From: Candidatus Omnitrophota bacterium
Lineage (GTDB): Bacteria; Omnitrophota; Gorgyraeia; Gygaellales; Profunditerraquicolaceae
Length of the DNA: 64,000 nt
NCBI GenBank assembly: GCA_029571225.1
Contig: JAKPTF010000061.1
Location: 3,051-67,050 of the forward strand
Direction of reading: 5' to 3'
Each line of letters opens with the position of its first letter. Positions within the stretch are counted from its first letter, which is position 1. Under the pieces are notes generated by a model. It saw only the letters and a program-made list of their open reading frames with translations, searched no databases and was not told where the DNA came from. This document shows positions 13,259-53,127 of this stretch, one piece after another. The position numbers were made by a program, and so were the translations under genes.

Positions 13259-13274
13259 AATCCCCCCTTGCTCT

Positions 13275-17814: not shown

Positions 17815-17824
17815 ACGGCACCTC

Positions 17825-20800
17825 TTATAGCTGTCTGTATTTTTTGTCGAATTCCTGGAAGAACTGCAGAAGGCCTTCATTGCCGATGAGACGAAGCTCT
17901 CCGTCGATAAGCTCGTAAGAGCCGGCGCCGAGCGGCAACGGCTCGACACTGCCCGTGTCTGCCTGCGTGACGGGATGATACGCGAAGACCGTCCCTATCG
18001 GGGAGCTGAACTGCATGGTCTCCAGCGCGGCAGGATCAACAGTCGAAGGTTCGTAGGAGATGATATTGCCCAGCGGCGCGGCAGGCGCTTCCGGGGCCGG
18101 AGCAGACGGCACAACAGGGCCTGGCTGCGTGCCATCACCCTGATCGTCGTCATCTGTTTCATCAGGTTCAATCGCAGGTTCCGGCGAAGGCGCATTATTG
18201 AAATATACCGGGCCGGGAGCGTCGTTAAGCAGTTGTATCGCATCCGGCTCGACAGAACCGTTGACTGCGCCTTCCAGATTCCCGCTCACCGCTTCATTCA
18301 ATTCCTCATCCATTATCTGGCCATAGACCCGCAAGGTAACAGAGCCGCCATCCACCATAATACGTAAAGGCGCATCAAGGGCGCCGATAGTGCTTGTCCC
18401 TTCGGAAATATATTCATTCCCGGCCTGCAGATACACATCGGACCCGGCGGTTATGTGCGTCATTTCTCCTGCGCCTGCAATAATGGACCCTGTGTCGCTG
18501 ATCAGGGACAACCCCCCCAGGTCCATCATAACCGGCACATCCAGGACAATGTCGCCTGATGCCCAGATATCGATCCCGGCATCTCCGGTCCTTGATAAAT
18601 ACTCGCCGCCCGGTTCTTCGGTCTCGGTAACGGTCACACTGCCGGATGTCGACTTGACCGTCAGCGCGCCTAACAACTCGCCGCTTGAAGGGCCAAGCGC
18701 AAGATCGAGTTCATTTTCTCCGCAGATTATCCTGTCGCCGATGATCTCGATCGCCCCTGCTGTCTGGATCGCATGGCTGTCTGCCAGGATATACGGATCG
18801 CGATAAAACACTGCGACATCGCCATAGGGAATCCCGTTAATGATCAAGCTGCCCGCGCCGTTGCCGATGCCCTGCGGATCAAACGGGTCATAATCAGCCC
18901 TTAATACGATCTCGACCGCGCTCAAATCCGAGTTAACCACCACATCCCCTGCGGAATACAGGCGGATATACGGCACCACGGAATACCCTTCGTAATAATC
19001 AATGTCCTCGGCCACAGATCCGGTGTCCAGCGTCGATGCAAGGGATATGCCCGGATATCCCCACCCGGGGATATTCAGATCAAGACTCGGCAAAAGTCCG
19101 TCAGTAGACACGTCGATCCCGTCCCCCGCGTAGAAATCGAAAGACTGCGCTCCGGAGAAATTGAAATTGGCCCCACCCAGATCCGCGGAATCCCCCGTGT
19201 GGCTGAGCGTGCCTGAACCGCTCCAGTCAGCATCTGCCAGGAGCGAAACAGTCCCGGACGCATAATACATTTCCGATTCGTAAAAAGAATAAGAGCCGAA
19301 TGATTCAATAGGAATTAGTTCCACAAGAGCCAGATCAAGAGTGATATTCCCGCCTGCTGAAAGCTCTATGTCCCCTGCCGCTGCCGAAACAGTATCTTCA
19401 GACGCTTCCATGCTGATGCAATACGCGCGGGCGCTGCTGGTGATCTGCGCATAACCTGAAACCGAGATATTCCCCGGGCTTGAAAGAAGAACGTCTCCGG
19501 CAGTGATGTCTATTTCGTTCACTGCGACCCAATCCGCGTCATTATCATTCTGGCCGGAGTAAACACGGCCGTCAGTAAGCGAAATATTGGCGCCGAACAA
19601 ACTGACATCGCCCGACGTAAGATACAGGATACCGGCATTGTCGCTGCTGGTCGTGGCGCTGGTATATGCATACCCGCCGGGCAAAGACAGATCGCCTCCG
19701 GCATAGACCAGGACATCGCCGGTTTCTGCTTCAAGACGGCGCGGGCTGATATCGTCTCCACCGTATGCCTCGGCTGTTGAATACACGCCGATAGCGACAC
19801 TTACCGGGCCGTTTAAGCACTGGACCGTCACATCATCGGAATAAGCGAACGCCTCGGAATCTTCGTATATAGTATTGGCTGACGCGTTTGACCAGACCAG
19901 CGTGGTATTCGGGATGGTGATCGGGCCGTTGTAAGAAATCAGGTTGACCTTGCCGGTAACCGCCCGCGCCACATCACCGGCATACGCGATGGCGTCGGAG
20001 TAGATGTGGCCGGCCGGGCTGATCGCATACCACGCATCCAGGGTCACATCGCCTGCCTGGGCATAGGAATTGAACGCGCTGCCGGAGGCAACGGCATGGC
20101 CGTAAATCAAAGTATTATCGTAGGTATTGATGTTGCGTCCGGCATCGACCAGCACTGCCATATAACGCCATTCGTAATTATTGTCATCGTAAGCATAGGT
20201 CCCGGCGATCGCATCAGACCAGGTGCCGGCATTGCCTTCGACAAAGGTCTGGGCAGAAGCATCGGAACGCACGTCCGTGCGGTAGATCGAGATATCGCCG
20301 CCTGAGGAAAGAGAAACGCTGGAGGAATATGCTGTGGCAGTCATGCCGCCCAAGGCATAGGCGTAGGAGAAGATATCCGCGCCGTAATAATACTCGGCAT
20401 CCCTGCCGTCAATGCTCAAAGAATTGCCCGCGGACAGGCTGACTGTGCCGCTTCGCGCAAGAGCCGTGCTATCGGGGTTCTCGTACACAGAGGCAGAGGC
20501 CTGGGAATAGATCAGTTCGAGGAAACCGGTCTCGATCAGGTTGTTTCCGGCGCTCAAAATTACGTTACCGCTGTTGGCAGAGCAGTTACCGTAACCGCTG
20601 GCATTGGCCTGGGAATTGACCCTGCCCCATTCCATATCGATATCGCCGAGGCCGGCGTAAATGCTCACATTGCCGGAAATGGCATACCCGGTTCCTTCAT
20701 AGACAAACGCCCCGGCATAGGAATACACACTGGCGCCGCGGCCGAAAATCACATCCAGACCGGCATCAAGGGTAACATTGCCGGAATACCCGTTCGGCGC

Positions 20801-23800
20801 ATCGCCTTCACCGAGGTCGCTATTTGAGTACACGCTGACCTGCTCGGCAAGCACAATGCTGCCGTCAGCGGTCAGGGTCAGATCGCGGTCTCCGATGGTG
20901 TAGATATCCTCATTGACATATATGTTTCCGGCAGTAATCAGGGTGATATCGCCGTCGGTTATCACTCCGCCGTCATGGTCATCGAACGTGCCTGCATTAA
21001 TATCAAGGTCGGACAGACTGTCGATAACGATCGCACCCGTGTTATTGGAAACATGCATGGTCTCTACGGTGCCCAAACCCATATCAACGCCGCTGTTGGC
21101 ATATAATTCCACGTTATACGCGCTGATCCTGCCGGTGCCGGGAGCGAGAATAGTCTGCGCGTAGATCTCAAGCCCCGAAAGCGCAGTTCCATAAACCCTC
21201 ACATCATCCAGCGCGCCCTGCGCGAGGCGGTACATATGGCCCCAGCCGCCGATAAAGAAACTGCCGTAGGTATCGACCGAGTCGGGCGAGGTCCCAAAGG
21301 TGCTGCCGTATTGAAGCTCATCGGTGTCAGGATTCAGGTCATTCTCCTGGAACAGATACATACTGCCTTCAGAACCTTCGCGGACCATTGCGAGCCGATA
21401 CCACTGGTTGTCATTGACGGTAACGGGGCTGCTGGCGTCCATGTCGTTATTGACCCAGCTCTGCAGCGCACCGTATTGCGTTTCCATAGCATAACCGGAA
21501 GTATACGGATACGGGGACACGCCCATCAAGCCGACATTGTTCCTGCTCTGTTCTCCCTGATACCAGCATATTAAGGTAAAAGCGCCTGTGCCGAAGTAAA
21601 AATCGCGGCCGATATTGATATAATCGTTGACGCCGTTGAAATAAAGCGCCTGGCCGAACCCATCCGGCCCGGGCACGATTCCCGGGTTGCCGCTGGCATA
21701 TGCAGAATAGCCGTTTCCGCTCACATCCTGGGCATAGTAATAATAATAGTACGGCTCCTGGTCAAAATTCCAGTATGCCCGCATGCCGAAATTCTCTACT
21801 TCCATGTTCCTGCGGGTGATATACCCCAGAGCGTCAAGGGTGACATATGATCCCGGAGCAACGATATCGGCAAACGTGCTCAGAATAATATTACCTTCAG
21901 CTGAAAGCCACACATCAAAAGACGCGTAAATACCGTATCGAATTGACAGGTTACCACCGCAATCAATACTAACCTCGCCGGCCTCGCCTCCTGAAACGCG
22001 GTTGGAGATAGCCAGAACTGTCAGGTCATTGGGGCTGTAAATATAAATATCTCCGTAATCGACGTTTTCCGCTGCGAAATTCCGCACATTCACTTCAAAA
22101 GGATTATAATAACTGCCGATGCCGCCTTCGGCAGTGATGTAGAGTTCATCCGCAGTGACATCAGCGCCTTCGCTGTCGCCCCAGACAGGGCCTGAACAAT
22201 TAATAACCACAAGACCGGGAGAACGTACATCGGAAACAGCCAGGCCGCGAGACCCAAGCTCTTCAAGGAAGATATCGCCGTCTTCGCCCGGAACAGGATT
22301 GGTAACTGCAGAAACATGTCCCGCATTGTAGGTCTGGATAAAGCCCGCGAGCGAGCCGATACCGGAACCAGCGCGTAGCACAAGGCTGCTGTATTCGGTA
22401 TTTTCGGAGAAATAGATCACATAATCGCCGGTATTGATAATGGCGCCTATGCCGTCATGCCAATCGCCAACAGTCTCGCTGTTATGGTCTGCTAAAATGG
22501 AGAAATAAATATCGTAGTATTCACCGCTGGTGACATAGATGTCACCAACAATGGAGATATCATTCGGGGAATAAATTATCGTATTTGAGGAGAATTCGCC
22601 GCTGATCACGGAGAGCAGCGGGTCGAGGATGGCTTTGCCGGGGGTATATCCCGGAGGCGCACGGCCGTTCAAAATGCCGTAAAAACCGAGTTGTTCGAAA
22701 GCGTCGATCCGTAACAGGCCGCCGTTGCCTGAAACCGCGCCTGCTGAAAAATCTATTTTCGCGTTTTTATTGACAAAAACGCTTGTCTGTTTTGATGTGA
22801 TATTGATCCTTCCGCCGTTACCCACAATACCCATTGCCCTGGCTTCAGTGCAGCTTGAGCTGTCAAAGGTAGCAGTGCCTTCGCTGACAATAATGATCTC
22901 GCCTGCTGCGCCCTGCTCAAGCGCATTGGCGCAAATCAGCCCCTGCTGGAGCACTGAGGTCGCTTCGATCGCGATCTTGCCGCCATCAGGGCTTGCTGCA
23001 GCCACTGCGTTGGCGATTATCCTTGCCTCAGGCGTATTGACGAAATCGGCATTGCTTCCCTTAATATATATCCGGTCAGCTTCCAGGGTGCCTGAGTTGA
23101 CGATCGGCGCGCCTTCTGCAACCAGCTCAATGACCCCCTCACGCTCTACCAGGGAGGTGACCTTTACCAGGCCGGTATTGTTGATCGCATGGTCAAACAC
23201 GCGGTTCAAGACCTTTGCTGTCAGCATAACCTTGCCGCCTTCTGCCAGGATAGAACCGCTGTTCTTCACCGCGCTTGTCATCTTTACGCCGCCAGGGCCA
23301 AAGACCTCGCTTTGCACTGCCTCATCCACCACCACTGAAATGGCGTTCTGATCTTCCAGAGAAACCGTGATCTTTTCCCCTGCTGCCAGGACGACCGTGC
23401 CTAATTCAGCCTGGATCATCATGCGGTTATCCACAGCGCCGCCAAGCAGGCATACATACCCGCCCCTGGCATTGATCGTGCCTTCATTGATCACATAGCC
23501 GTTCTTGCCTGACTTGGTGAACACGTGCTTGCCATTCAAAAAATCGTCGTTTGAAATATTAAGCGATGACGCCACCAGGCCCGCGACATCTACGCGCGAA
23601 TTCGGCCCGAAAATAACGCCGTTGGGATTAACGATGAATACCCGGCCGTTGGCATTAAGCGTCCCCATGATCGCTGAAGGATCAACGCCGACCACGCGGT
23701 TCAATACGATCGAACTCGCGGAGGGCTGCTGAAAACTGACTGTTTCTGGCTGGGCAATGCTGAAACTGTTATAATTGACGATCAGCCGCTCTGACGGGGT

Positions 23801-23977
23801 ATTGACATTAAGCGTATTGCTGGCTGAACGGTCGAATGTCGCGGAACCGGATACAACGCTCTCCCCTTCGGGAAGCGCGAATGCGATTAACGGAATAAAA
23901 AGAAACACGATCGTGGCGGTCAACAGGCAGGATGTGCGTGCAGCACTTCTCATGATATTCCTTACTGCGGATTTCAA
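17825..23977 (-). CDS. Giant two-partner-secretion exoprotein (TpsA; filamentous-haemagglutinin-like, 2050 aa)
   Basis: Signal peptide, then TPS domain: ...LNVNTPSERLIVNYNSFSIAQPETVSFQQPSASSIVLNRVVGVDPSAIMGTLNANGRVFIVNPNGVIFGPNSRVDVAGLVASSLNISN (NPNG motif). Long degenerate G/S/A/D/Y-rich beta-helix-like repeats and a P-rich linker near the C-terminus. Confidence 0.9.
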   Translation of the reverse strand: MKSAVRNIMRSAARTSCLLTATIVFLFIPLIAFALPEGESVVSGSATFDRSASNTLNVNTPSERLIVNYNSFSIAQPETVSFQQPSASSIVLNRVVGVDPSAIMGTLNANGRVFIVNPNGVIFGPNSRVDVAGLVASSLNISNDDFLNGKHVFTKSGKNGYVINEGTINARGGYVCLLGGAVDNRMMIQAELGTVVLAAGEKITVSLEDQNAISVVVDEAVQSEVFGPGGVKMTSAVKNSGSILAEGGKVMLTAKVLNRVFDHAINNTGLVKVTSLVEREGVIELVAEGAPIVNSGTLEADRIYIKGSNADFVNTPEARIIANAVAAASPDGGKIAIEATSVLQQGLICANALEQGAAGEIIIVSEGTATFDSSSCTEARAMGIVGNGGRINITSKQTSVFVNKNAKIDFSAGAVSGNGGLLRIDAFEQLGFYGILNGRAPPGYTPGKAILDPLLSVISGEFSSNTIIYSPNDISIVGDIYVTSGEYYDIYFSILADHNSETVGDWHDGIGAIINTGDYVIYFSENTEYSSLVLRAGSGIGSLAGFIQTYNAGHVSAVTNPVPGEDGDIFLEELGSRGLAVSDVRSPGLVVINCSGPVWGDSEGADVTADELYITAEGGIGSYYNPFEVNVRNFAAENVDYGDIYIYSPNDLTVLAISNRVSGGEAGEVSIDCGGNLSIRYGIYASFDVWLSAEGNIILSTFADIVAPGSYVTLDALGYITRRNMEVENFGMRAYWNFDQEPYYYYYYAQDVSGNGYSAYASGNPGIVPGPDGFGQALYFNGVNDYINIGRDFYFGTGAFTLICWYQGEQSRNNVGLMGVSPYPYTSGYAMETQYGALQSWVNNDMDASSPVTVNDNQWYRLAMVREGSEGSMYLFQENDLNPDTDELQYGSTFGTSPDSVDTYGSFFIGGWGHMYRLAQGALDDVRVYGTALSGLEIYAQTILAPGTGRISAYNVELYANSGVDMGLGTVETMHVSNNTGAIVIDSLSDLDINAGTFDDHDGGVITDGDITLITAGNIYVNEDIYTIGDRDLTLTADGSIVLAEQVSVYSNSDLGEGDAPNGYSGNVTLDAGLDVIFGRGASVYSYAGAFVYEGTGYAISGNVSIYAGLGDIDMEWGRVNSQANASGYGNCSANSGNVILSAGNNLIETGFLELIYSQASASVYENPDSTALARSGTVSLSAGNSLSIDGRDAEYYYGADIFSYAYALGGMTATAYSSSVSLSSGGDISIYRTDVRSDASAQTFVEGNAGTWSDAIAGTYAYDDNNYEWRYMAVLVDAGRNINTYDNTLIYGHAVASGSAFNSYAQAGDVTLDAWYAISPAGHIYSDAIAYAGDVARAVTGKVNLISYNGPITIPNTTLVWSNASANTIYEDSEAFAYSDDVTVQCLNGPVSVAIGVYSTAEAYGGDDISPRRLEAETGDVLVYAGGDLSLPGGYAYTSATTSSDNAGILYLTSGDVSLFGANISLTDGRVYSGQNDNDADWVAVNEIDITAGDVLLSSPGNISVSGYAQITSSARAYCISMEASEDTVSAAAGDIELSAGGNITLDLALVELIPIESFGSYSFYESEMYYASGTVSLLADADWSGSGTLSHTGDSADLGGANFNFSGAQSFDFYAGDGIDVSTDGLLPSLDLNIPGWGYPGISLASTLDTGSVAEDIDYYEGYSVVPYIRLYSAGDVVVNSDLSAVEIVLRADYDPFDPQGIGNGAGSLIINGIPYGDVAVFYRDPYILADSHAIQTAGAIEIIGDRIICGENELDLALGPSSGELLGALTVKSTSGSVTVTETEEPGGEYLSRTGDAGIDIWASGDIVLDVPVMMDLGGLSLISDTGSIIAGAGEMTHITAGSDVYLQAGNEYISEGTSTIGALDAPLRIMVDGGSVTLRVYGQIMDEELNEAVSGNLEGAVNGSVEPDAIQLLNDAPGPVYFNNAPSPEPAIEPDETDDDDQGDGTQPGPVVPSAPAPEAPAAPLGNIISYEPSTVDPAALETMQFSSPIGTVFAYHPVTQADTGSVEPLPLGAGSYELIDGELRLIGNEGLLQFFQEFDKKYRQL
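21155..21781 (-). other. LamG/concanavalin-A-like lectin domain embedded in TpsA, aa ~733-941
   Basis: AYWNFDQEP...DVSGNGYSAYASGNPGIVPGPDGFGQALYFNGVNDYINIG...FTLICWY...WYRLAMVREGSEGSMYLF...LDDVRVYGTALSGLEI matches the usual Laminin_G_3 pattern. A Y6 run occurs at aa 743-748. Confidence 0.65.
23078..23875 (-). other. TPS (haemagglutination-activity) secretion domain of TpsA, aa ~35-300
   Basis: Conserved NxNxF and NPNG motifs as quoted above. Coordinates converted from amino-acid positions. Confidence 0.8.
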
Positions 23978-24057: not shown

Positions 24058-25761
24058 CTAAAATTCTTTCGAGACCGCGATCCACGGATGCATATGGTCA
24101 TCGTCCGACGGAGTCCTGTCAAGCGGCCAGGCAAGATCAGCCCGGACCGAGAAGTCTTCAGGCAGATTGAACCTCATGCCGAAGCCCGCGCTTCGTAAAG
24201 TGTCGCTCTTGAGTTCCCCTGCCTGCGGCTTTTTCAAACGCGCCCATCCCCAGTCATAGAATAAAGCGACCCGCAACGCGTCATAGAACTTCGCTTTTGA
24301 AAACGGAACCATGAAATCCTTAGGGATAAAAGAAAGCGGCAGCAGCCACTCGAACGTAGAGGCCAGCCCCTGGTCGCCCACATATTCTCCGGAGGGATAG
24401 CCCCTGACATTCGATATGCCTCCCACCTGGAACTGCTGGGATGCGGCAAGCGGATATGCTGACAACTGGAAAGAGTTCTTCCACAAAAGAGCCGAAGAGA
24501 AAGGCATCTTCTGCAGCCGTAAAAGATTGGCGGGGAACTTGAGGAATTTCCCTCCTGCGCCGACGCGCGAACACCGCGAATCAGTATCGTCCATGCCTCC
24601 AAGGATATTCGGGATGCCGATATGCGCTTCGGGAGAGAATATAGTCCTGCCGCCTCCCATCCAGGAATCCGAATAATCCGCGTCGAGGCCGAATTTCATC
24701 ACGCGCATGCGGTCGCGGCTCTGCTCAGCCCCTGCCTGGAAATTATACGAATCCAGATAATCGAAACCGGTGTTCAGGGTAACGGTAAGGTCCTAGTTGT
24801 TCAGTATTTCATGCATGAGGAATATCCCGTATACCTTGCTCTTGCCGCGCGCGTCGAGATCGGCATATTCTTCGCCCAGAGAAAGCTTGGACCGCGAGGC
24901 AAACGCTCCGATCTTGGTGGTCTCGGAAAGCGGCACCAGATACCGCCCTGATATCAACCGGTAATCCTCACCCTCGCCGAGTTGATACTGCAGGGAAAGC
25001 ATATCATCCAGGCCGAACGCGTTGTTATGGCTGACAGTCCCTGAAAAACGGTCCTTGCCGACATACCGGGACGCATAATTATCGTAATCAAACCGCACAT
25101 GGACCGGCATGTTGTCCGCCACGTCAAGCATGATATCGCTGCTTCCTGTTTCCTTGCCCGGTGACAGGACTGCCTTGACATTCCGGTCAGGATGTTCGTT
25201 CAGGCGCGCGAGCCCTATTCTGAGCTTTTTATAATTGAAGAGATCACCCTTCTGAAGGTTGATCCGTTTCTGTATGAGCGCGGTCTTGAAATACCTGTTG
25301 CCTTTGATGCCAATATCGCCGACCGTACCCTCAACGGCCATGATCTCCAGGACGCCCTCGACGATCTTCTGGGGAGGCAGATACGCGCGCGAGGTCACGT
25401 ATCCTTTCCTGCGGTATGCGTCGGTCAACAGATCCGCGACCTTCTGCATGTCTGCGAGGCTCAATTCCCTGTTCTCGAACGGTGTCGTGATCCTGGATAT
25501 CTCGAAATAACTCAGCAGCGTAACGCGGCTGACATTGATCGTCCTTACATATGCCTTCTGCTCTTTTGCGGCAGGAAGCGGCACTGAAGCTGCAGGTTCC
25601 TCGATCTGCGGTTTTTCAGGCTCCCGCTCGATGCGCTCACGCAAAAGTTTCTCTTCTTCGACCTGACGCTCGCCGGTCTGGACTTTTTCTACCTGGGCAA
25701 TGACGAATGAAGGGAATAATACGGAAAGACAGACGACTGCGGCGAAAATGGAATTACGCAT
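24058..25761 (-). pseudogene. TpsB (ShlB/FhaC/HecB-type POTRA + 16-strand barrel transporter) interrupted by a single in-frame TAG
   Basis: ORFs 24793..25761 and 24058..24708 are in the same frame (24795-24708 = 87 = 29 codons). Translation across the gap is continuous: ...FLMHEILNN*DLTVTLNTGFDYLDSYNFQAGAEQSRDRMRVMKFGLD... The 567-residue read-through product is collinear with the intact 581-aa paralog at 31331-33076, including the C-terminal ...HPWIAVSKEF versus ...HAWFALTKGF. Confidence 0.8.
24793..24795 (-). other. In-frame amber (TAG) codon inside tpsB
   Basis: Plus strand cta at 24793-24795. Codon 323 of the otherwise intact reading frame. Confidence 0.95.
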
Positions 25762-26395: not shown

Positions 26396-27130
26396 ATGTT
26401 CCTCTTTATCCGCCTCCTCTTAGCGCATCTCATCGGAGATTTCCCCTTGCAGTTCGATTTTATCTTCAAGCTGAAACTCAAAGGCCTGCGCGGGGTTATC
26501 CCTCACGCGCTGATCATATTCTACTGCGGCATTGCAATGTCCTGGCCGTATCTTCATATGCCGCTCGCATGGGGATTCCTGGCCTTCATCGCCATAACAC
26601 ATCTGATCCAGGACTCATTAAAGATCAATTACGGAAAAGCCAAGCACGGCTTCTGGGCATACGTCATTGACCAGGCAACCCACGCCGCGCTCATCTCTCT
26701 GGTTTTCTTCACGGGCTTGAAAGACCTGCCCGCTCCTGAGCCGTCAAACCCGTTCGTCAGGCTCTATTCCCATGACGGCCTCATCCTGTATCTCATCATC
26801 CTGATCGCCGCGACCTACAACGGGCATTTTCTCATCAGATGCTTCAAAGACTCGTTCGTCAGGAACGCCAATCCCTGTGACGCGTATGAGAAATGGTTCG
26901 GAATGTTCGAACGGCTCGCAATCGTATCGCTTTTTCTCACTCCGCTGCCGCTGTGGTTGATTATCTTGCTCAGCCTTGCGCTGCGGCCGCTGGCCTACGT
27001 ATCTCTCAAAGATCGGCTGTCCCTGCACCGTTGCTTCGTCGCCGTGCCCGACATGGTCCTCAGCTGGATCATCGGCCTGTTAGGCGGCATGATCCTCTAT
27101 CTACTTCAATCCCGTTACCCGGTATATTGA
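26396..27130 (+). CDS. DUF3307-family membrane protein
   Basis: 244 aa, polytopic. N-terminal LLAHLIGDFPLQ motif typical of DUF3307. The 3' end overlaps the convergent cyclase gene by 30 nt. Confidence 0.7.
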   Translation: MFLFIRLLLAHLIGDFPLQFDFIFKLKLKGLRGVIPHALIIFYCGIAMSWPYLHMPLAWGFLAFIAITHLIQDSLKINYGKAKHGFWAYVIDQATHAALISLVFFTGLKDLPAPEPSNPFVRLYSHDGLILYLIILIAATYNGHFLIRCFKDSFVRNANPCDAYEKWFGMFERLAIVSLFLTPLPLWLIILLSLALRPLAYVSLKDRLSLHRCFVAVPDMVLSWIIGLLGGMILYLLQSRYPVY

Positions 27131-29344
27131 TATCGGATTTGTCTTGCCCTTGACCATGATCGGCTCAAGCTTCTCCACAACGACATGGTCCCGGGCCATC
27201 TCGAATGTCGACTCGCTGATGATGATCTCGCCTTTACCCGCAGCGGCGCAGAGCCGCGCGCCAAGGTTGACGTTGTCCCCGATGACCGTATAATCCATAC
27301 GTTCGGCAGAACCCATGTTCCCCACGACCATATCGCCCGTGTTGATCCCGATGCCGATCTGGATCGCGGCCTTTGCGTCCTGCGCCAGGTTCTGGCGCAA
27401 TTCCTTCATTTTTTCCTGGATATCGAGCGCGACACGGATGGCCACAAGCGCGTGGTCCTTTTCATGGCGTTTGCTCGGCGCGCCGAAGAACGCCATGACC
27501 TCGTCGCCCACAAATTTATCAAGCGTTCCGTTATAATGGAATATGACCTTGACCTGCAGCGAGAGCACCTCGTTGAGCATCGCCACCACTTCTTCGGGCT
27601 GGCGTGTCTCTGAAAAAGCGGTAAACCCGCGCACGTCTGAGAACAGGACCGTGAGATGCCTGCGCTCGCCGCCGAGGGTCAGGCGCGAAGGATTATCCAT
27701 CATCTCGGATATGACCTCGTGGGACAGGTAATGAGAGAATGCCCCCTTGATCCAGAGCTTCTCCCGCTCCTCGGTAAAGAACCTGAAGCTGGTGATGGCC
27801 ATAAGGCCGAACACGACGATCCCCAGGGGCCCCACCATATCAAGCCACAGGCCGTTGGAGATGAACAAATAGAAACAAACCCAGAAAAATCCTGCAGCGT
27901 ACACGATTGCCAGGACCAGGCTTTTCCACAACTTCAGCAGAGACACCAGGGCGATCACCAGCGCCGTGACCACCAGCATCAGAACGCGAAGCGCCATGCG
28001 CTGCCTGACGATGAACCGCTCGGTCAGGATCGTATTGATGAAATTCGAATGGGTCCCGACCATGGGATAATTCTCCTGCAGGGGGATCGGCCGCAGGTCG
28101 TGCGTTCCGGTCGCGGTAAGGCCGACGATACAGATCTTGCCGTTCACCAGTGCCTTGAGCCGGGCAGTCAGGTCAGCTTCCATCTTGCGCAGGACCTCTT
28201 CTGCGCCCGAGATGCCGGCGTCCCGGCCGGCAAGTTGACTGCGCACTTCTTCGAGCTGAAGGATCAGATAATACGGGATATGCTTGAATGTTTTGTCCCA
28301 TTTCCCGTGCCAGTTCACGATCATGCATCCCTGGCTGTCAACGGGAATGACGATGTCCTTGCGGCCCGGATGGAACCTGGCTTTCTTAAGCGTGACCCGG
28401 TTTGGGCCGACTTCGACATTTTTGACTTCCAGCCTGTCCAGCAGAGCGGCAATGGTCAACTGTGGCAGGATCTTTCCCTCATAGCGGACAAAAAGCGGAA
28501 CCTTGCGCGTAACGCCGTCGATATCAGGATCGGCGTTGATAAAACCGCTTCCCATCATGCGCCTGGCGTATGCCATGATCGGTACGTTCAAAGAACCGGC
28601 TTCCCTGAAAAACGGCCACGAGCCCGGGATATCAACGGAAAACCTGTTGACGTAGAAATACACCGCCTGGTGATGCACGAAACGCTCCTGGACATACGAT
28701 TCGTCTTCGGCGAATAAAAAGAACCCGCGTTCCCGCTCCAGCCGCTCCAGGCAGGCGTCGAACGATATCTCCGGGTCTTTGCGGATAATATCGCGCACTG
28801 CCTCATCCAGCACCATACGTTTGGCCGCCGGCAGCTTGTCCCGCAAAAGGCCGGCGTCAACGCCGAGGGACTGCGCCGCCTTCTCAACGGAGATCGAGAT
28901 GTCCTTTAAGAGTATTTCCTTGAGCTTTGGGAAAGGGAAACTTTGCGGTTCGTCGAAATAGAACGGAAGATATGTGATGCCGCTGCGGTCTATGGCGTCA
29001 GCGAACGCCTCATCCTCCTGCGGGTTCTCTTTATCCGCTTCGGTGAAAATGACATCCCAGAGGATCTGCCTGGCCCCGCACTCCTTGAGAATCCTGGTCA
29101 ACCTGGCATGGTAGCTTCTCGGCCATGGCCACCTGCCGATCTTTGCGAGGCTCTGGTCGTCGATATCGACGTGAACGACCGGTCCCCGCGCTGGCTGGGC
29201 GCCCTGGAGGGTAAAACGCAAATCCAGCGCTTTTAATTCGAGGATCTCGTAGGGTTTGGAGCTGACAGCGAAGAAAATCGCCACTGCCAGCGACAGCGTG
29301 ATGAAAAGGCTGACTGTCAGTTTCAGGCGGGTCTTCTTATTCAC
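27101..29344 (-). CDS. CHASE2-sensor class III adenylate/guanylate cyclase
   Basis: 747 aa. N-terminal TM. CHASE2 core VVHVDIDDQSLAKIGRWPWPRSYHARLTRILKECGARQILWDVIFTE. Three TMs. Cyclase domain LTVLFSDVRGFTAFSE...KFVGDEVMAFFGAP...GINTGDMVVGNMGS...YTVIGDNVNLGARL. Confidence 0.9.
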   Translation of the reverse strand: MNKKTRLKLTVSLFITLSLAVAIFFAVSSKPYEILELKALDLRFTLQGAQPARGPVVHVDIDDQSLAKIGRWPWPRSYHARLTRILKECGARQILWDVIFTEADKENPQEDEAFADAIDRSGITYLPFYFDEPQSFPFPKLKEILLKDISISVEKAAQSLGVDAGLLRDKLPAAKRMVLDEAVRDIIRKDPEISFDACLERLERERGFFLFAEDESYVQERFVHHQAVYFYVNRFSVDIPGSWPFFREAGSLNVPIMAYARRMMGSGFINADPDIDGVTRKVPLFVRYEGKILPQLTIAALLDRLEVKNVEVGPNRVTLKKARFHPGRKDIVIPVDSQGCMIVNWHGKWDKTFKHIPYYLILQLEEVRSQLAGRDAGISGAEEVLRKMEADLTARLKALVNGKICIVGLTATGTHDLRPIPLQENYPMVGTHSNFINTILTERFIVRQRMALRVLMLVVTALVIALVSLLKLWKSLVLAIVYAAGFFWVCFYLFISNGLWLDMVGPLGIVVFGLMAITSFRFFTEEREKLWIKGAFSHYLSHEVISEMMDNPSRLTLGGERRHLTVLFSDVRGFTAFSETRQPEEVVAMLNEVLSLQVKVIFHYNGTLDKFVGDEVMAFFGAPSKRHEKDHALVAIRVALDIQEKMKELRQNLAQDAKAAIQIGIGINTGDMVVGNMGSAERMDYTVIGDNVNLGARLCAAAGKGEIIISESTFEMARDHVVVEKLEPIMVKGKTNPISIYRVTGLK

Positions 29345-29380
29345 GTAGGTGCTCTCGCGGGATAGCCGTTGCGGCCGTTA

Positions 29381-30394
29381 TTAAAACCTGTAATACGCCG
29401 ACAGCGAGGTGAGCGAGCCGGAATACCGTTCGCCCGGTTCGTTGGACCGGTTCTGCCGGTACGTATAGTTAAGGCCGAACGACAGCGCTTTATTCACAGA
29501 ATAGAACAGTGCGGCAGTCATCAGGTACGTTTTATCTTCCTGTTTGCACCCCGCGTCATTGATGAGCGTGCGCGTGCGGTAATCCCTGATCTGACGGGAA
29601 GCGGACAGATACCCAAAAAGTTTTTTCGTGAACAGATGGGTCAGCGACGCGCCGAACCTGAATGAGTCATAATCGTAATAGTTGAGGTATTTCTCATCGG
29701 AATTATTGTTGTAGTACTCGAAGTTGAACTTCAGCATGTCCTTCTCGAAGAATTTGCCGACCTCATAGGTGAACGTATTGCGCACGTCGTCCCGCTTTTT
29801 GGTGCCGACCTCGCCGTTGCCCGAACGGTTATACCGCTTGGCATAGTTGCGGTATGATCCGTCATACCGAAGGCTGTGGAACATCTTGTGCGGCAGGGTC
29901 TGTTTGAACTTCAGGTCGATGATCTGCTCTATGTAATCGTCCGTGCCGGTATGGTAATATTCAATAACGTCAAAGCCGTAACCGCCCGAAAGCGTGATAT
30001 CCTTGTTAAGGCGGTGTTCGAGGCCCGTATGGATCGCGTTGCGGATCATGTCGAGCTTGGGAAAGTCAGCATACACCAGGTTCATGAGCTCGTAATCGAA
30101 AAAGAACTCGCTCCTGCGCCAGATCGGGCTGGCAAAAGAAGCGCTCAAGAACTCCTGCGTATATGCGCCGCCGTCGCGCCGGCTGTCGAGGAACGCGTTA
30201 TTATCGTATCCCATGGTAACCGCTGCCAGGAAATTGAAATCGCCCTTCTCATACAGCGTGCGTTCGGGCTCAAGATAGATCTTCTTCACCCGGGGAGTGA
30301 CTTCCTCTTCCAGGTAATCGGCGGCGCAACATAGCGCGGGCGCCAGCATAAGGCCAGCGATCAATATGGATATCGTTTTCTTGTGTATGGGCAT
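29381..30394 (-). CDS. Putative outer-membrane beta-barrel protein (BBP2-like)
   Basis: 337 aa. Signal peptide MPIHKKTISILIAGLMLAPALCCA. Alternating Y/F-rich strands, GYDNNAF motif, C-terminal ...LSAYYRF (terminal aromatic OMP signature). Confidence 0.5.
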   Translation of the reverse strand: MPIHKKTISILIAGLMLAPALCCAADYLEEEVTPRVKKIYLEPERTLYEKGDFNFLAAVTMGYDNNAFLDSRRDGGAYTQEFLSASFASPIWRRSEFFFDYELMNLVYADFPKLDMIRNAIHTGLEHRLNKDITLSGGYGFDVIEYYHTGTDDYIEQIIDLKFKQTLPHKMFHSLRYDGSYRNYAKRYNRSGNGEVGTKKRDDVRNTFTYEVGKFFEKDMLKFNFEYYNNNSDEKYLNYYDYDSFRFGASLTHLFTKKLFGYLSASRQIRDYRTRTLINDAGCKQEDKTYLMTAALFYSVNKALSFGLNYTYRQNRSNEPGERYSGSLTSLSAYYRF

Positions 30395-30439
30395 CGTCCC
30401 TCCTTGGAATGGATTAAAGAGAACGGTTATACGGTCCTT

Positions 30440-31297
30440 TTATGGCTCATACGGCTCGTACTGTTCCTCACTCTCTTCTTCCAGCCGGTTAGTTATATCC
30501 TCGATCGTATTGCGTTCGTCGGTGATGTCCTTGGTATCGATGATCTGGTCCAGGATAGAGCTCTTCTGGTCTACCTGTTCGGTCAGGGTCTCGATAACTG
30601 ATTTCTCCGGCTCCATCCGTCCCCGCTCCCGTTCCTGGCGCCGGGGTTCTCTTCCCTCAACGCGACTCAACAGGTCAGCACGAATATTATCGAACTTCTC
30701 GAATTCGCGCAGGCTTATCTGAAGCAAGGCGCTGGGTTCCTGGAACCTTTCGATAAAGGTTCTGAAACCCTCGGGGAGCATCATATCCATCAACTGCACC
30801 TTGTTCGCGTCAAAAGCCTTGATAAAGACCGTGTCTTTCAAAGCCGCCACCTCGTCCTGGTCTGGTTCGACATACACCATATAGCTGGAACCTCTGACGC
30901 CCGCGACGGCGGAGGGCGTCGTCACTTCAAAGCTCATGCCTGCCTTTATGTTCTCCAGGTTGGAATAGACCCTGCCTCGGCTCAACTCAAGCCTGTCGAT
31001 CGTAGCCTCATCCTCGGCAGCGTTCAACACAGCCAGCGCCTTTTCGGCAATCTGGATGGCATTCTTCTTCTCCTTGTCAAGGGCGATGTCGACCTTCGAA
31101 TGGCGCGCGGTCCTGATCGTATCACCGGCCTTCAACTGCATGCCCTTCTCGGCCTTTCTCCAGTCGGTCTCATTGGGGGACTGGACCTGGACGTTCCCCT
31201 GGACAAAAATGATTTCCGCGGCATGCGCCATACCCGGGAAAAAACCGAAAGCAAGGATCATCACCATGCTTAATATCATCGTCTTTGATCTTCTCAT
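30440..31297 (-). CDS. Secreted FecR-domain protein with acidic C-terminal tail
   Basis: 285 aa. Signal peptide ...FGFFPGMAHA. FecR-like VQGNVQVQSPNETDWRKAEKGMQLKAGDTIRTARHSKVDIAL. Tail ...NRLEEESEEQYEPYEP. Confidence 0.7.
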   Translation of the reverse strand: MRRSKTMILSMVMILAFGFFPGMAHAAEIIFVQGNVQVQSPNETDWRKAEKGMQLKAGDTIRTARHSKVDIALDKEKKNAIQIAEKALAVLNAAEDEATIDRLELSRGRVYSNLENIKAGMSFEVTTPSAVAGVRGSSYMVYVEPDQDEVAALKDTVFIKAFDANKVQLMDMMLPEGFRTFIERFQEPSALLQISLREFEKFDNIRADLLSRVEGREPRRQERERGRMEPEKSVIETLTEQVDQKSSILDQIIDTKDITDERNTIEDITNRLEEESEEQYEPYEP

Positions 31298-31330
31298 ATC
31301 CGTCTCTCCCTCTTGATTGAATGTCCTGTG

Positions 31331-33076
31331 CTAGAACCCTTTGGTGAGCGCGAACCACGCATGCGCATGGTCTCCGTCCTTGCTGGGCTGATCGGTGAAC
31401 GGCCAGCCGATATCTAACCGGAACGATGTCGCCTTATCCGGGACCTTGAACTCGCAGCCGATGCCTCCGGATGCATATTCATAATGTTTGGGGTTGCCTT
31501 CCTGATACGTTTTGAAACTGGCCTTGGCGTAATCGACGAAGGTGAAAAGCCGCAGCGCATCATAGATCTTCGTTTTGGAATACGGCACCGACAATCCTCG
31601 CGGAAGGCCGAATGCAGGGAATGAAAAACCCGTGCTGAATGACACACCTTCATCTCCGGGCGCCTGGGCTCTGGGGAAACCGCGCATATCGATGACTCCC
31701 ATAAAGCCGCCGATGGAAAAAACATTGACGCCGGGCTGGGCCTGGGAGGATTTCTGCCAGTGCGCCTTGCCGAGCCAGTCGATATCCTTAAAAAGCTTCT
31801 GCCTCCTGGCAATGATCAGGTGGTTCTTTTTATATCCGCCGCCTGCCCCTTTGACCGAACAGGATTCGTCTTCCGCTGTCGACGCGCCGAAGATCCTGGG
31901 GATGCCGATCTCAAGGTCGTTGGCGATGACCCAGCGTCCGTAGCGGTCAGCGCGGTTCAGATCAAGGCTCCACAGCGCAGCCCCGAACCTGTCCGCTTTC
32001 TTCTTGTAGCCATACTGCCACCAATGGATGTTCTTGCTGACAAAGCCGTAGCTCGACACAAGCTCGCAACCGGGCTCGTCGATGAGCGACTGGTAGAAAT
32101 AAAAATACCATTTATACGCGTGTTTCTCGAAGTCGGTATCGACATTGGTGCCGCAGCAGTAATCTTCGAGTTTATAGGGCATGTAATAGAACTCGAATTT
32201 CCAATCGGGGTTCAGGGGCAGGAAATAGTCGAAATCGAACAACCGGTGGGAATCGGACTCTGTGGCCTGGGCCTTGAACTGCAATGAGTCGTCATGACCG
32301 GTGAGGTTATTATGCGTGACATAGATCTTATACCTGCGGTAGGCGATGTATTCGGAGCCATAATTGTCCATCTGCAGCGTCACGTGGACGGGCTTCTTAT
32401 CCTTGACCGTCAGGATAACGTCGGTCAGGCCGGTCTGCACGTTCGGATCGCAGGTAATGGATACCTTGCGGTCCGGATGTTTATTGATGCGGTAGATAGA
32501 ATTGTTGAGCTTCTTGAAATTAAAGTATTCGCCTTCTTTCAATGTCAGCTTCTTACGGAATACCGCTTCGGAAAAATGCTCGTTGCCTTCGATGATGATC
32601 TTGCCGGTCCTGCCCTCCTTGACCACGATCTGGAGGATGCCCTCGCCCAGCCGGGAAGGATCGATATACCCGTATGAAGTGATATACCCTTCCCTGCTGT
32701 AAGCACGGGTGACGCGGTCAGCCACATATTGAAGCTCCCTGCCGGTCAGTTCGCGGTTCTCATACATGGTCTTGAGCCTGCTGATAGCTTCAGGGGCAAG
32801 GATTGTCGCGCCGGTGACCCTGACCTCTTTGATCAGCGTTTTTCCCGCTGGCAGCGTGGGCTTGGGGATCTGCGATTCGACGGTTTGTTTCAGAATGATC
32901 GCAGGCGATTTTTTCCGCGCAGCGCCGAGGTTCTGCTGTATCGCATCTGCCTTCGGGCCGTCTTCGTCAGCGCCGTCAACGGCAAAGGCCGCAGCGGAAC
33001 CGGTGATGACAATGAAAGCAGCGAGTAATAGAACATGGGTCATTGCTTTAATGCCTTGCCGCGCTCTTTCTATCAT
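31331..33076 (-). CDS. ShlB/FhaC/HecB-family (TpsB-type) outer-membrane transporter, intact, with no adjacent TPS-domain cargo
   Basis: 581 aa. Signal peptide, POTRA region (IKEVRVTGATILAPEAISRLKTMYENRELTGRELQYVADRVTRAYSREGYITS...IIIEGNEHFSE), barrel ending ...HAWFALTKGF. Clear paralog of 24058-25761. Confidence 0.85.
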   Translation of the reverse strand: MIERARQGIKAMTHVLLLAAFIVITGSAAAFAVDGADEDGPKADAIQQNLGAARKKSPAIILKQTVESQIPKPTLPAGKTLIKEVRVTGATILAPEAISRLKTMYENRELTGRELQYVADRVTRAYSREGYITSYGYIDPSRLGEGILQIVVKEGRTGKIIIEGNEHFSEAVFRKKLTLKEGEYFNFKKLNNSIYRINKHPDRKVSITCDPNVQTGLTDVILTVKDKKPVHVTLQMDNYGSEYIAYRRYKIYVTHNNLTGHDDSLQFKAQATESDSHRLFDFDYFLPLNPDWKFEFYYMPYKLEDYCCGTNVDTDFEKHAYKWYFYFYQSLIDEPGCELVSSYGFVSKNIHWWQYGYKKKADRFGAALWSLDLNRADRYGRWVIANDLEIGIPRIFGASTAEDESCSVKGAGGGYKKNHLIIARRQKLFKDIDWLGKAHWQKSSQAQPGVNVFSIGGFMGVIDMRGFPRAQAPGDEGVSFSTGFSFPAFGLPRGLSVPYSKTKIYDALRLFTFVDYAKASFKTYQEGNPKHYEYASGGIGCEFKVPDKATSFRLDIGWPFTDQPSKDGDHAHAWFALTKGF

Positions 33077-33166
33077 GTATAGATCCTCCTTTTTCTCACA
33101 GATCCACCCGAGATATTAATTATATGGTAATACCCGCATATCCTTTGTCAAGCAAATAGTTGCTGT

Positions 33167-33856
33167 TCAGTGTGTTTCGTTCCTCTTCTGGGAAAAATAA
33201 TTGATGAATACCACGATAAAGGTGACGCAAACAAGCAGTTGCGCTATGACGACCATCCTGCCTGCAGTATTTTTCGCGCAAATATCCCCGAACCCGACTG
33301 TTGTGGTCGCGACGATGCTGAAATAAAGCGCAGAAACAGGGTCCATGGGCATGTTCAGAAGGTCGAATGCCATATAAAGAACGGCAAAATCGGACATTAC
33401 CTCTATATAGTGCAAAGAAATGAGCAAAAGCGAACGGCGGTACGAAACGACAGCGCTGTGCATATCCTCAAGGAATACAAGATGCAGGATGTGGACGAAC
33501 GTATCGCTCAGGAAATAGATGACCAGGAAGATGACGACAGGGCTCCTGTACCACCCCTGCCCAAGCACGACGAGCGGAAAGGCGAATTTCAGAAGCGTGT
33601 ACAGTTCGACCGCAAGTTTCCGGCCCGTCGGGCCCCAGTGGCCGAATATATCCCTTATCAAAAGCACGGGGAAAAGAAACTGCACCAGGCATAACGCAAG
33701 CCGCACGATACGCTCCACTCCGTAGGTATGCTCGTTCCAGACCCTGCGCACATCCCGCAATTGCTGGGCATACGCCTCAGGCATGCGCTCGCCATGCTCG
33801 CTTTCGGGCGGTTTTATTGCCGGGTTCGAAAAAATGTTCAAGAGGCTGAATTTCAT
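33167..33856 (-). CDS. Potassium-channel family protein (TVGFGD selectivity filter)
   Basis: ORF 33167..33979 trimmed to MKFSLLNIF (ATG 33856-33854, 2 nt after the upstream stop). Pore helix and filter: ALYFSIVATTTVGFGDI, flanked by TMs. Confidence 0.75.
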   Translation of the reverse strand: MKFSLLNIFSNPAIKPPESEHGERMPEAYAQQLRDVRRVWNEHTYGVERIVRLALCLVQFLFPVLLIRDIFGHWGPTGRKLAVELYTLLKFAFPLVVLGQGWYRSPVVIFLVIYFLSDTFVHILHLVFLEDMHSAVVSYRRSLLLISLHYIEVMSDFAVLYMAFDLLNMPMDPVSALYFSIVATTTVGFGDICAKNTAGRMVVIAQLLVCVTFIVVFINYFSQKRNETH

Positions 33857-35864: not shown

Positions 35865-35884
35865 GAAGACTCCTCCGATTATGA

Positions 35885-37507: not shown

Positions 37508-37536
37508 AGTTCCTCCTCGTTTGAACCGGCCTTGAA

Positions 37537-53087: not shown

Positions 53088-53127
53088 AGGTCCTCCTTTA
53101 TGGTGTATGCCCTCGCGGCAATCGATA

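Follow-up and report, generated by a model that had tools for sequence, protein, structure and literature searches.

To our knowledge, no input has been defined for CHASE2, a widespread bacterial sensor domain, since its first description, and TpsB proteins are generally regarded as specialised for cargo carrying a TPS domain. The single studied case suggesting that a partner protein provides input to CHASE2 comes from Sinorhizobium meliloti. Here NsrA, a 1190-aa protein combining FecR, TPR and a C-terminal outer-membrane barrel and encoded directly upstream of cyaK, is needed for signal perception by the CHASE2 cyclase CyaK, and also by CyaD1 and CyaD2; the signal is external and proteinaceous, and the output is cAMP (PMC7529298, PMC13001267). 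FecR-domain proteins are also found with CHASE2 sensors in Burkholderia (the 'BiofilmReg' operon) and in P. aeruginosa (PA4035/PA4036), where a LysM-FecR protein accompanies a CHASE2 histidine kinase (PMC5192318). In a Campylobacterota cluster, described as a gene neighbourhood only, a CHASE2 adenylate cyclase and a phosphodiesterase occur with a FecR-domain protein of the outer membrane plus a TPR protein (PMC9239204). A first-pass annotation of the DNA studied here knew of no mechanistic description of such neighbourhoods; NsrA-CyaK, an experimentally supported route from the outer membrane to CHASE2, is one.

Here we describe a four-gene operon from a 64,000-nucleotide stretch of a Candidatus Omnitrophota contig (hereafter the window), whose products are a TpsB-like outer-membrane protein, an exported protein of FecR fold, an outer-membrane barrel of 14 strands and a CHASE2 cyclase. 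With slightly better than even confidence, we read this operon as an envelope signalling pathway that follows NsrA-CyaK and FecA-FecR logic but is built from separate parts, in which an outer-membrane or periplasmic cue would act through the FecR-type protein on a cAMP-making membrane cyclase. The pairing of FecR with a sensor is common and partly known, and the new part is the secretion-type TpsB-like barrel within the operon. Among the top-ranked literature matches, we found no paper linking CHASE2 with ShlB, POTRA or TpsB.

Layout and conservation of the operon

The four co-directional genes are separated by gaps of 33, 45 and 36 nt (Table 1), in the arrangement that the first-pass annotation had given, and all share one reading frame. 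Signal-peptide-like N-termini are present in the TpsB-like, FecR and 14-strand barrel proteins. The sigma-70-like promoter in Table 1 counts as a candidate only, since a consensus scan finds such sites in this region no more often than expected from shuffled sequence.

Table 1. Features of the window discussed here, with positions counted from its first nucleotide
Feature	Position	Strand	Size, basis or remark
TpsB-like outer-membrane protein	33076..31331	-	581 aa; Pfam
Exported FecR-fold protein	31297..30440	-	285 aa; Pfam FecR, AlphaFold, Foldseek
Outer-membrane beta-barrel	30394..29381	-	337 aa; AlphaFold, 14 strands
TM-CHASE2-3TM class III adenylate cyclase (predicted)	29344..27101	-	747 aa; Pfam, hydrophobic segments
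Sigma-70-like promoter candidate (TTGACA, 16 nt, TACCAT)	33124..33151	-	Consensus scan; in 90-nt gap upstream of TpsB-like gene
K+-channel-like membrane protein (Ion_trans_2, filter TTVGFGD)	33167..33856	-	Pfam, NCBIfam; likely start is internal Met at 33856
TpsA-linked tpsB paralog	24058..25761	-	Adjoins 2050-aa TPS-domain gene (23977..17825)
Second FecR-domain exported protein, first gene of second CHASE2 module	55823..56809	-	328 aa, basic tail; Pfam
Partner-switching module downstream of second FecR	52707..55813	-	Four genes
STAS antagonist	55813..55421	-	Second CHASE2 module
RsbW-like kinase	55424..54993	-	Second CHASE2 module
CHASE2-PP2C/SpoIIE phosphatase	54996..53128	-	Second CHASE2 module
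Second STAS protein	53237..52707	-	Second CHASE2 module

At least 13 further Omnitrophota genomes, each a species representative, have the four-gene order, which is kept down to about 33-45% FecR identity. Its recurrence exceeds chance, and part of the conservation may be plain vertical inheritance because the wider region, with its FGE-sulfatase genes, K+ channel and DUF3307, is syntenic. The invariant core consists of FecR, the outer-membrane barrel and the CHASE2 cyclase. One Omnitrophota sub-lineage (L004, L022, L023) retains this core where the TpsB-like gene is absent, which indicates that the TpsB-like gene is not indispensable; at L024 the TpsB-like gene is present and the 14-strand barrel is absent. 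As a neighbour of the cluster the K+-channel-like gene is conserved, with orthologs at L002, L004, L021, L024 and L025, although its placement relative to the TpsB-like gene differs among lineages. At L024 and L025, for example, the TpsB-like gene is displaced relative to the channel gene, yet it still lies by FecR. L003, a distant Omnitrophota variant, has extra cNMP-binding and metallophosphatase genes.

FecR-fold proteins and CHASE2 sensors

The 747-aa protein is a predicted class III adenylate cyclase, with Pfam matches to CHASE2 (2.8e-48) and Guanylate_cyc (6.1e-26). CHASE2 occupies residues 21-470 and, in an alignment, shows two lineage-specific insertions; one hydrophobic segment is N-terminal and about three are central. 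The canonical class III residues were located at D570, K610, D614, T686, N693 and R697, and from their motifs we take these to be two metal-binding Asp, the substrate-specifying Lys and Asp/Thr, and the transition-state Asn and Arg.

The FecR-fold protein matches Pfam FecR over residues 59-157 (1.4e-09). Its N-terminus is only a cleavable signal-peptide-like segment, ending in AHA before AE, and neither a TM segment nor an anti-sigma domain is present. The AlphaFold model (pLDDT 79.9) has a beta-rich FecR-type domain at residues 27-193 and a low-confidence, helical and charged C-terminal tail. The tail had been described as acidic, which fits the extreme C-terminus (EEESEEQYEPYEP) well, but the last 90 residues as a whole are more mixed (27 D+E versus 15 K+R). 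Foldseek ranks the periplasmic domains of FecR-type anti-sigma proteins (4m0n/4m0h) and of PupR (6ovk_R) highest among its matches to the model (E about 1e-5, probability 1.00), and in 6ovk the PupR signalling domain was crystallised with an outer-membrane transducer domain. The protein, of which 110 homologs were found, also matches the FecR region of NsrA (E=2e-5). In the operon and the genes next to it, Pfam finds neither sigma-70_r2/r4 nor TonB-dependent receptor families.

The coupling of FecR to CHASE2 is genuine and general, with very strong linkage across phyla. We conducted a CHASE2-seeded metagenome census, in which loci were found with a degenerate WPWPRxxHA DNA pattern (n=87 CHASE2 genes). 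A FecR-domain gene lay within 400 nt of 31/87 CHASE2 genes, 25 of them being 5' on the same strand, and the CHASE2 outputs comprised cyclase, GGDEF/EAL, PP2C and others, in line with the earlier suggestion that FecR-CHASE2 is a reusable unit. Pfam confirmed FecR in 33/34 neighbours scanned, a set that includes three more distant ORFs, and LysM-FecR was the commonest form (9/34). In a FecR-seeded census of 58 distant FecR genes, the genes immediately beside them included those for TPR proteins (19), CHASE2 (8), Crp-type cNMP receptors (8) and cyclases (7). Since about a third of CHASE2 genes have a 5' FecR-domain gene, we argue that the immediate input to CHASE2 is often a partner protein, as NsrA-CyaK also suggests. 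The window itself holds a second FecR and a CHASE2-PP2C phosphatase, which the first-pass annotation had presented as a pair; both exist, but the genes are not adjacent, as those for a STAS protein and an RsbW-like kinase lie between them.

The TpsB-like protein and its rival explanations

After a signal peptide and an acidic stretch at its N-terminus, the TpsB-like protein has two POTRA domains followed by a divergent ShlB/Omp85 barrel. Pfam identifies POTRA_2 (residues 82-155, 5.8e-15), POTRA (158-199) and ShlB (216-306, 1.9e-12), the ShlB match being confined to the initial ~95 positions of the profile. In PDB sequence searches the best matches, CdiB and FhaC, cover the POTRA region only. 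The C-terminal barrel aligns full-length with that of the TpsA-linked paralog; the paralogy was recognised in the first pass and amounts to 34% identity. At the L6 tip the protein reads GVIDMRGF, with a 3-residue insertion before RG[YF]. Throughout the clade an insertion (V-I-D-N/M) precedes RG, RG[YF] and FxD are kept, and the Omp85 Arg/Asp lid-lock residues are retained. The beta-13 motif is FVDYA, the window protein having Ala for the final Gly. All 61 close homologs are from Omnitrophota and, in neighbour-joining trees without support values, the TpsB-like proteins form their own monophyletic clade, sister to the TpsA-linked paralog.

In about 17 genomes the TpsB-like gene lies at most one gene from FecR with no TPS cargo nearby, and across all loci TPS-domain ORFs occur only next to the other, TpsA-linked paralog. 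In the window, Pfam bears out the earlier observation that no TPS-domain cargo gene adjoins the barrel gene, its neighbour being FecR only. Our data support the view that the TpsB-like gene belongs to the operon as a dedicated and conserved component and is not a stray.

ShlB/FecR/CHASE2 neighbourhoods had been expected in other phyla, and were indeed found. Unrelated ShlB-type genes (19-21% identity) adjoin FecR-CHASE2 in Bradyrhizobium (MAG), Bosea and the metagenome contig L170, and in three Azospirillum species another unrelated ShlB-type gene lies beside a small exported protein and a CHASE2 cyclase, which suggests repeated recruitment. We considered whether the Azospirillum protein (~235 aa, upstream of the cyclase) is a hidden FecR, but Pfam, hhalign and a custom HMM were all negative. 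Such loci are rare: ShlB-type genes occur at only 2/87 sampled CHASE2 loci, and there were none at the 58 distant FecR loci. In the controls, ShlB matches in Mesorhizobium, Skermanella, Niveispirillum and A. argentinense sit in other or classical contexts. A Crocosphaera locus, reached via a distant TpsB match, contains a classical pair of TpsB and TPS-CHAT genes that lies convergent to a CHASE2 cyclase gene; only the cyclase domain aligns with the window protein, and the locus was set aside as an anecdote.

A broader reading, which we advance tentatively, is that TpsB-type transporters were repeatedly and independently recruited to CHASE2 operons (in Omnitrophota, Bradyrhizobium/Bosea, Azospirillum and an unassigned lineage). 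They might there handle a small, TPS-less exported protein, usually of FecR fold, by displaying it on or threading it across the outer membrane, and CHASE2 might be the receiver of a protein partner and not a small-molecule binder. If true, this would reveal a new class of TpsB substrates and the long-missing CHASE2 input.

Instead of a relay, the same genes could encode a secretion system coupled to a feedback sensor, in which the TpsB-like protein fully secretes the FecR protein to the surface or the extracellular space, as for Leptospira LipL45 and Lsa33, and CHASE2 monitors the FecR that stays behind in the periplasm, or else some unrelated cue. The FecR domain does resemble LipL45, Lsa33 and Lsa19, the Omp85 translocation motifs are kept in the TpsB-like protein, and in Azospirillum small exported proteins precede CHASE2-ShlB. 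However, 29/31 FecR-CHASE2 pairs in the census are without any ShlB gene, and FecR proteins paired with CHASE2 often bear anchors such as LysM, which places them in the periplasm. Furthermore, neither Pfam nor the Foldseek matches revealed a TPS domain or fold in the FecR protein, and its weak match to the LapA retention module is below the cut-off (23 versus 50 bits). We therefore regard full secretion as unlikely.

We also doubt that the TpsB-like protein is an ordinary two-partner transporter, serving as backup or replacement for the tpsB of the 2050-aa TpsA, with the FecR-OMP-CHASE2 neighbourhood reflecting inherited synteny only. The TpsA-linked tpsB is broken by a single in-frame TAG (24793-24795), which the first-pass annotation had missed, whereas the window TpsA ORF is intact; the L006 ortholog has an in-frame TAG at a different codon. 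The sister relationship of the two paralogs and the broad synteny of the region are likewise compatible with a backup role. Yet in at least 10 genomes with the TpsB-like gene beside FecR there is no TPS-domain ORF within 8 kb, and an L6 insertion of its own and a divergent barrel set the TpsB-like clade apart. Its gene stays by FecR when shifted relative to the K+ channel gene, both tpsB paralogs are intact in L009, and in other phyla CHASE2 loci seem to have gained unrelated ShlB genes independently, without a TpsA.

The operon's second barrel bears on a further alternative. AlphaFold models it with 14 strands (pLDDT 87.8), Pfam gives weak BBP2_2/MtrB_PioB barrel matches, and among solved structures its fold comes closest to 14-strand CymA, OmpG and FadL (TM ~0.5-0.57). 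An N-terminal extension (residues ~22-46, consensus AADxxEEEVTPRxKKIYLEP) is conserved but disordered, the C-terminal signature is ...LSAYYRF, and the 251 family representatives (134-407 aa) all stand alone. We rejected the idea that this is a split-off NsrA barrel. BLAST finds no similarity between the two and NsrA-like census proteins bear TonB-receptor-like barrels, so any analogy to a split NsrA is functional and not one of homology. Could the TpsB-like protein then be a dedicated Omp85-type insertase for this barrel, with no direct signalling role? Barrel insertion is known for Omp85-family members, the best NCBIfam matches to the POTRA region are BamA models (sub-threshold), and the two genes occur together in most loci. 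Nevertheless, either gene is found without the other (the barrel in L004, L022 and L023, the TpsB-like gene in L024), POTRA_2/ShlB with two POTRA domains is a TpsB-type and not a BamA/TamA-type architecture, and other ShlB-CHASE2 loci are without such a barrel (OMP HMM, 0 matches), making an insertase very improbable. Least credible is that four genes with no functional relationship happen to lie side by side within a long co-directional array, for although nearly all window genes are on the minus strand and promoter and terminator scans were uninformative, this is at odds with the short gaps, the order kept among divergent homologs and the FecR-CHASE2 linkage across phyla.

A putative pathway compared with known systems

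In the envelope signalling pathway that we favour, the exported FecR-fold protein would partner the CHASE2 domain in the periplasm, in effect as its 'ligand', and the outer-membrane components would set the state of FecR. The 14-strand barrel may admit a cue, or dock FecR via its conserved N-terminal peptide. The TpsB-like barrel would bind FecR by its POTRA domains and may thread part of it out to the cell surface, for instance the charged tail at its C-terminus. The three transmembrane helices might then relay an altered FecR-CHASE2 contact to the dimer of the class III cyclase, changing cAMP synthesis. These physical contacts are all inferred, as are the direction of the signal and the kind of cue. 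A TpsB protein acting on or with a FecR-fold protein would, if true, widen the scope of type Vb secretion, and, with ShlB-CHASE2 operons in the cultured genera Azospirillum and Bosea, would offer a genetically tractable route for testing how CHASE2 sensors are reached by outer-membrane events.

Like NsrA-CyaK, the operon encodes an exported FecR-domain protein 5' of a TM-CHASE2-TM class III cyclase. NsrA is, however, a single FecR-TPR-barrel fusion, whereas the Omnitrophota FecR (285 aa) and barrel (337 aa) are separate and without TPR, the barrel differs from the TonB-receptor-like one of NsrA relatives, and a TpsB-like gene is added. BiofilmReg and PA4035/PA4036 similarly have an exported FecR-domain protein immediately 5' of a CHASE2 sensor, but differ in their histidine kinase and response regulator output, LysM peptidoglycan anchor and lack of outer-membrane barrels in the operon. 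The Campylobacterota cluster also groups a CHASE2 cyclase with a FecR-domain envelope protein, and L003 resembles it in having additional genes, but the cluster is without a ShlB-type gene or a separate 14-strand barrel.

With two-partner secretion (type Vb; FhaC-FhaB, CdiB-CdiA) the TpsB-like protein shares POTRA_2, a second POTRA, the ShlB barrel and the L6 RG[YF] and beta-13 FxD motifs. It differs in its L6-tip insertion, in a barrel barely recognised by Pfam and PDB sequence searches, and in being encoded without adjacent TPS cargo inside a signalling operon. Finally, FecA-FecR-FecI and PupB-PupR signalling shares with the operon a FecR-type periplasmic fold and the putative logic of outer-membrane barrel to periplasmic FecR domain to inner-membrane transducer. 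In place of an anti-sigma domain and TM segment in FecR, a TonB-dependent transducer and an ECF sigma factor, the receiver in the Omnitrophota operon would be a CHASE2 cyclase.

The four-gene operon and its predicted products

The four co-directional genes read from the sequence in the first-pass annotation were borne out in their coordinates, strand and intergenic gaps (33, 45 and 36 nt), and their Pfam domains agree. Genes 1-3 have hydrophobic, signal-peptide-like N-termini. A consensus promoter scan, whose sites overall were not above shuffled expectation, placed a sigma-70-like candidate site in the 90 nt that precede gene 1. A convergent DUF3307 neighbour of the cyclase gene is also present in L002 and L004.

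Coordinates of the operon, its neighbours and comparison loci (L numbers, in other genomes or metagenome contigs)
Locus	Feature	Coordinates	Strand	Details
Window	Gene 1, TpsB-like	33076..31331	minus	581 aa; Pfam POTRA_2, POTRA, first part of ShlB
Window	Gene 2, FecR protein	31297..30440	minus	285 aa; Pfam FecR
Window	Gene 3, OMP	30394..29381	minus	337 aa; Pfam weak beta-barrel porin families
Window	Gene 4, cyclase	29344..27101	minus	747 aa; Pfam CHASE2, Guanylate_cyc
Window	DUF3307 membrane protein	26396-27130	plus	convergent with gene 4; 3' overlap 30 nt
Window	K+-channel-like gene	33167-33856	minus	
L002	K+-channel-like gene	5338-6006		
L004	K+-channel-like gene	7203-7877		
L024	K+-channel-like gene	3373-3897		
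L025	K+-channel-like gene	7183-7857		
Window	Two FGE-sulfatase-domain genes, 285-aa exported protein	34743-37540	minus	upstream of cluster; syntenic in L002, L004
Window	TpsA-linked tpsB	24058-25761	minus	single in-frame TAG at 24793-24795, Gln position
L006	Ortholog of TpsA-linked tpsB	13616-15319		single in-frame TAG at 14504-14506, Glu position
Window	2050-aa TpsA, then PEP-CTERM protein	16963-23977	minus	TpsA carries Laminin_G_3
Window	Second FecR module	52707-56809	minus	FecR, STAS antagonist, RsbW-like kinase, CHASE2-PP2C phosphatase, second STAS
Window	PAS histidine kinase	56863-59232		upstream of second FecR module
L003	Distant Omnitrophota variant	8001-16831		FecR, cNMP-binding protein, metallophosphatase, 457-aa protein, TP_0789/LolA-like protein, MMPL transporter with cNMP-binding domain, CHASE2 cyclase
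L209	Azospirillum plasmid operon	4043-8632		
L214	Azospirillum plasmid operon	1474-6096		
L215	Azospirillum plasmid operon	1486-6132		
L086	Crocosphaera sp. locus	8001-17749		ShlB-type TpsB and 1246-aa TPS-CHAT protein convergent with CHASE2 cyclase; Apyc1-like metallo-beta-lactamase-fold protein; MscS channel with cNMP-binding domain

The FecR protein, modelled from a 42-sequence alignment (pLDDT 79.9), is predicted to form a beta-rich domain (residues 27-193) followed by low-confidence helices. It shares the fold of its best solved-structure matches (E about 1e-5), namely 4m0n/4m0h, the periplasmic domains of FecR-type anti-sigma factors, and 6ovk_R, the PupR cell-surface signalling domain. 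The protein has neither a TM helix nor an anti-sigma domain, which makes it a soluble, periplasmic or exported, protein of FecR fold. Its tail is charged, with an acidic end containing aromatics. By NCBIfam the domain is closest to Leptospira LipL45, Lsa33 and Lsa19, and its match to the LapA retention module is sub-threshold (23 vs 50 bits).

Gene 3 encodes a protein modelled confidently as a 14-strand barrel (pLDDT 87.8), with CymA, OmpG and FadL as the nearest solved folds. Its residues 22-46 are predicted to be disordered (pLDDT 30-40) yet are strongly conserved, ranking with the best-conserved stretches of the family (consensus AADxxEEEVTPRxKKIYLEP), which suggests that this N-terminal extension is a partner-binding peptide. 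The family is small, with 251 representatives at 50% clustering, all stand-alone. In the cyclase, one hydrophobic segment lies at the N-terminus and about three more in the middle of the protein; all six of D570, K610, D614, T686, N693 and R697, which we take to be the canonical class III residues, are present, and the enzyme is predicted to be active, with cAMP as output. Its CHASE2 domain contains two insertions, of about 110 residues (~132-240) and about 30 residues (~355-395), which in alignment are common to the Omnitrophota orthologs L003, L004 and L024 and absent from the CHASE2 domains of CyaK, Bacillota, Paraburkholderia and the window's CHASE2-PP2C protein.

The TpsB-like protein and its relatives

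All 61 close homologs of the TpsB-like protein are from Omnitrophota, beyond which identity falls to about 23-24% (cyanobacterial ShlB proteins). It is 34% identical to the window's TpsA-linked paralog, which matches CdiB and FhaC over its full length (94 bits); its own match to them covers the POTRA region only (58 bits). The first-pass annotation had asked whether the barrel clusters with classical transporters. It is indeed related to them, yet in a neighbour-joining tree with few classical TpsBs sampled the FecR-linked proteins form one separate clade, with the TpsA-linked clade as its sister. The FecR-linked clade retains the L6 Arg and beta-13 Asp and is set apart by 3 inserted residues at the tip of L6 (GV[IV]D[NM]RG[YF] vs V-RGY). 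TPS-domain ORFs adjoin the TpsA-linked paralog only (window, L006, L009). That the TpsB-like protein works for the nearby TpsA as an ordinary TpsB, a reading favoured by the in-frame TAG that breaks TpsA's cognate tpsB, is disfavoured by the comparative data. The L006 ortholog, from a 76%-related genome, carries its TAG at a different codon, and that of L009 is intact; these TAGs could reflect independent pseudogenisation, assembly error or read-through.

ShlB-type genes also occur at other CHASE2 loci, including two of the 87 found in a CHASE2-seeded census. In L156 (Bradyrhizobium sp.) the gene is divergent from FecR, which is followed by CHASE2-PAS-GGDEF-EAL, an arrangement repeated on a plasmid of Bosea sp. 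Tri-49; in L170, a metagenome locus, RCC1-FecR and CHASE2-GGDEF precede ShlB, which lies 7 nt downstream. No TPS-domain ORF was found near either census gene. Both proteins have canonical L6 loops; sequence identity between the two, and of each with the Omnitrophota clade, is only 19-21%. Azospirillum sp. B510, A. lipoferum 4B and A. ramasamyi share a conserved three-gene operon encoding an exported ~235-aa protein, a CHASE2 cyclase and ShlB (gaps 10-40 nt) with no adjacent TpsA; a classical TpsB-TpsA pair of A. argentinense served as control. The ~235-aa protein ends ...GRLIRF and is not detectably FecR by Pfam, hhalign or our own HMM. CHASE2 combined with ShlB, POTRA or TpsB was not found among the 25 top-ranked of 339 literature matches. 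The case for counting the barrel as part of the signalling system rests most strongly on different TpsB lineages having been recruited, apparently independently, to CHASE2 operons. Complete secretion of FecR, with CHASE2 as a feedback sensor, is likewise disfavoured by the comparative data.

Conservation of the cluster and FecR-CHASE2 linkage

Species-representative genomes were scanned with a FecR-alignment seed and the matches annotated with our own HMMs. The order TpsB-like, FecR, OMP, CHASE2 cyclase recurs in L002/L013, L006-L012, L015-L018 and L020, with truncated or variant copies in L014, L019 and L021. A K+-channel-like gene lies between TpsB-like and FecR in L024, which also lacks the OMP, and in L025. 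The TpsB-like gene is missing from L004, L022 and L023, with synteny unchanged, and this group is nested inside TpsB-containing lineages in neighbour-joining trees without support values, which suggests secondary loss. The core unit is therefore FecR, OMP and CHASE2 cyclase, and the TpsB-like gene is an old yet dispensable addition. These comparisons disfavour another reading of the TpsB-like protein, as an insertase dedicated to the 14-strand barrel.

Synteny extends to the surroundings of the cluster (FGE-sulfatase genes, K+ channel, DUF3307), which means that the conserved order, taken by itself, makes the functional link between the genes look stronger than it is. The K+-channel-like gene (Ion_trans_2, filter TTVGFGD) encodes no cNMP-binding domain and is always near the cluster, upstream of TpsB-like in some genomes and between TpsB-like and FecR in others. 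The L002 counterpart of the upstream 285-aa exported protein has a faint RHS-repeat match. In L003, one cluster unites sensor, second-messenger turnover and effectors.

Pfam analysis of the genes directly flanking 58 distant FecR genes identified TPR (19), CHASE2 (8), Crp-type cNMP receptors (8) and cyclase (7). From the other side, a WPWPRxxHA DNA pattern retrieved 120 metagenome loci, 87 with a CHASE2 ORF; a FecR-domain ORF lay within 400 nt of it in 31 (36%), 25 of these being 5' on the same strand, and within that distance at 12 of the 32 loci with both flanks of at least 1.5 kb. Pfam confirmed FecR in 33 of 34 FecR-HMM neighbours (the 31 plus three more distant ORFs), whose extra domains include LysM (9), TPR (5), a TonB-receptor-like barrel (2) and RCC1 (1). 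Together with the window's second FecR module, both censuses support well the earlier proposal of a reusable FecR-CHASE2 unit, and the comparative data disfavour the weakest reading, that the four genes are unrelated neighbours. The unit is partly known already: FecR adjoins CHASE2 in Burkholderia and P. aeruginosa (PMC5192318) and in Campylobacterota (PMC9239204). The second module itself is a partner-switching operon headed by FecR, with a 4-nt overlap at two junctions.

A putative envelope relay and known systems

The best-supported reading, in which we infer every contact, is an outer-membrane to inner-membrane relay. The FecR-fold protein would touch CHASE2, its state or position being set by the outer-membrane components; the 14-strand barrel may be an entry channel or docking site, the TpsB-like barrel may act through POTRA as a docking or threading device, and the cyclase, predicted to be active, would yield cAMP as output. 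The first-pass observation is confirmed, and its interpretation as an envelope-spanning FecR-CHASE2 sensor is supported in part. The hypothesis can be tested in cultured Azospirillum and Bosea.

In Sinorhizobium meliloti, the CHASE2 cyclases CyaK and CyaD1/D2 need the outer-membrane-associated NsrA for signal perception (PMC7529298, PMC13001267). NsrA combines FecR, TPR and a C-terminal barrel, and its gene on pSymB, annotated 'FecR domain-containing protein', directly abuts cyaK. FecR-CHASE2 pairing and an outer-membrane-dependent CHASE2 cyclase are known in outline through NsrA-CyaK; what is new is the separate 14-strand barrel and, above all, the recurrent cargo-less TpsB-type partner.
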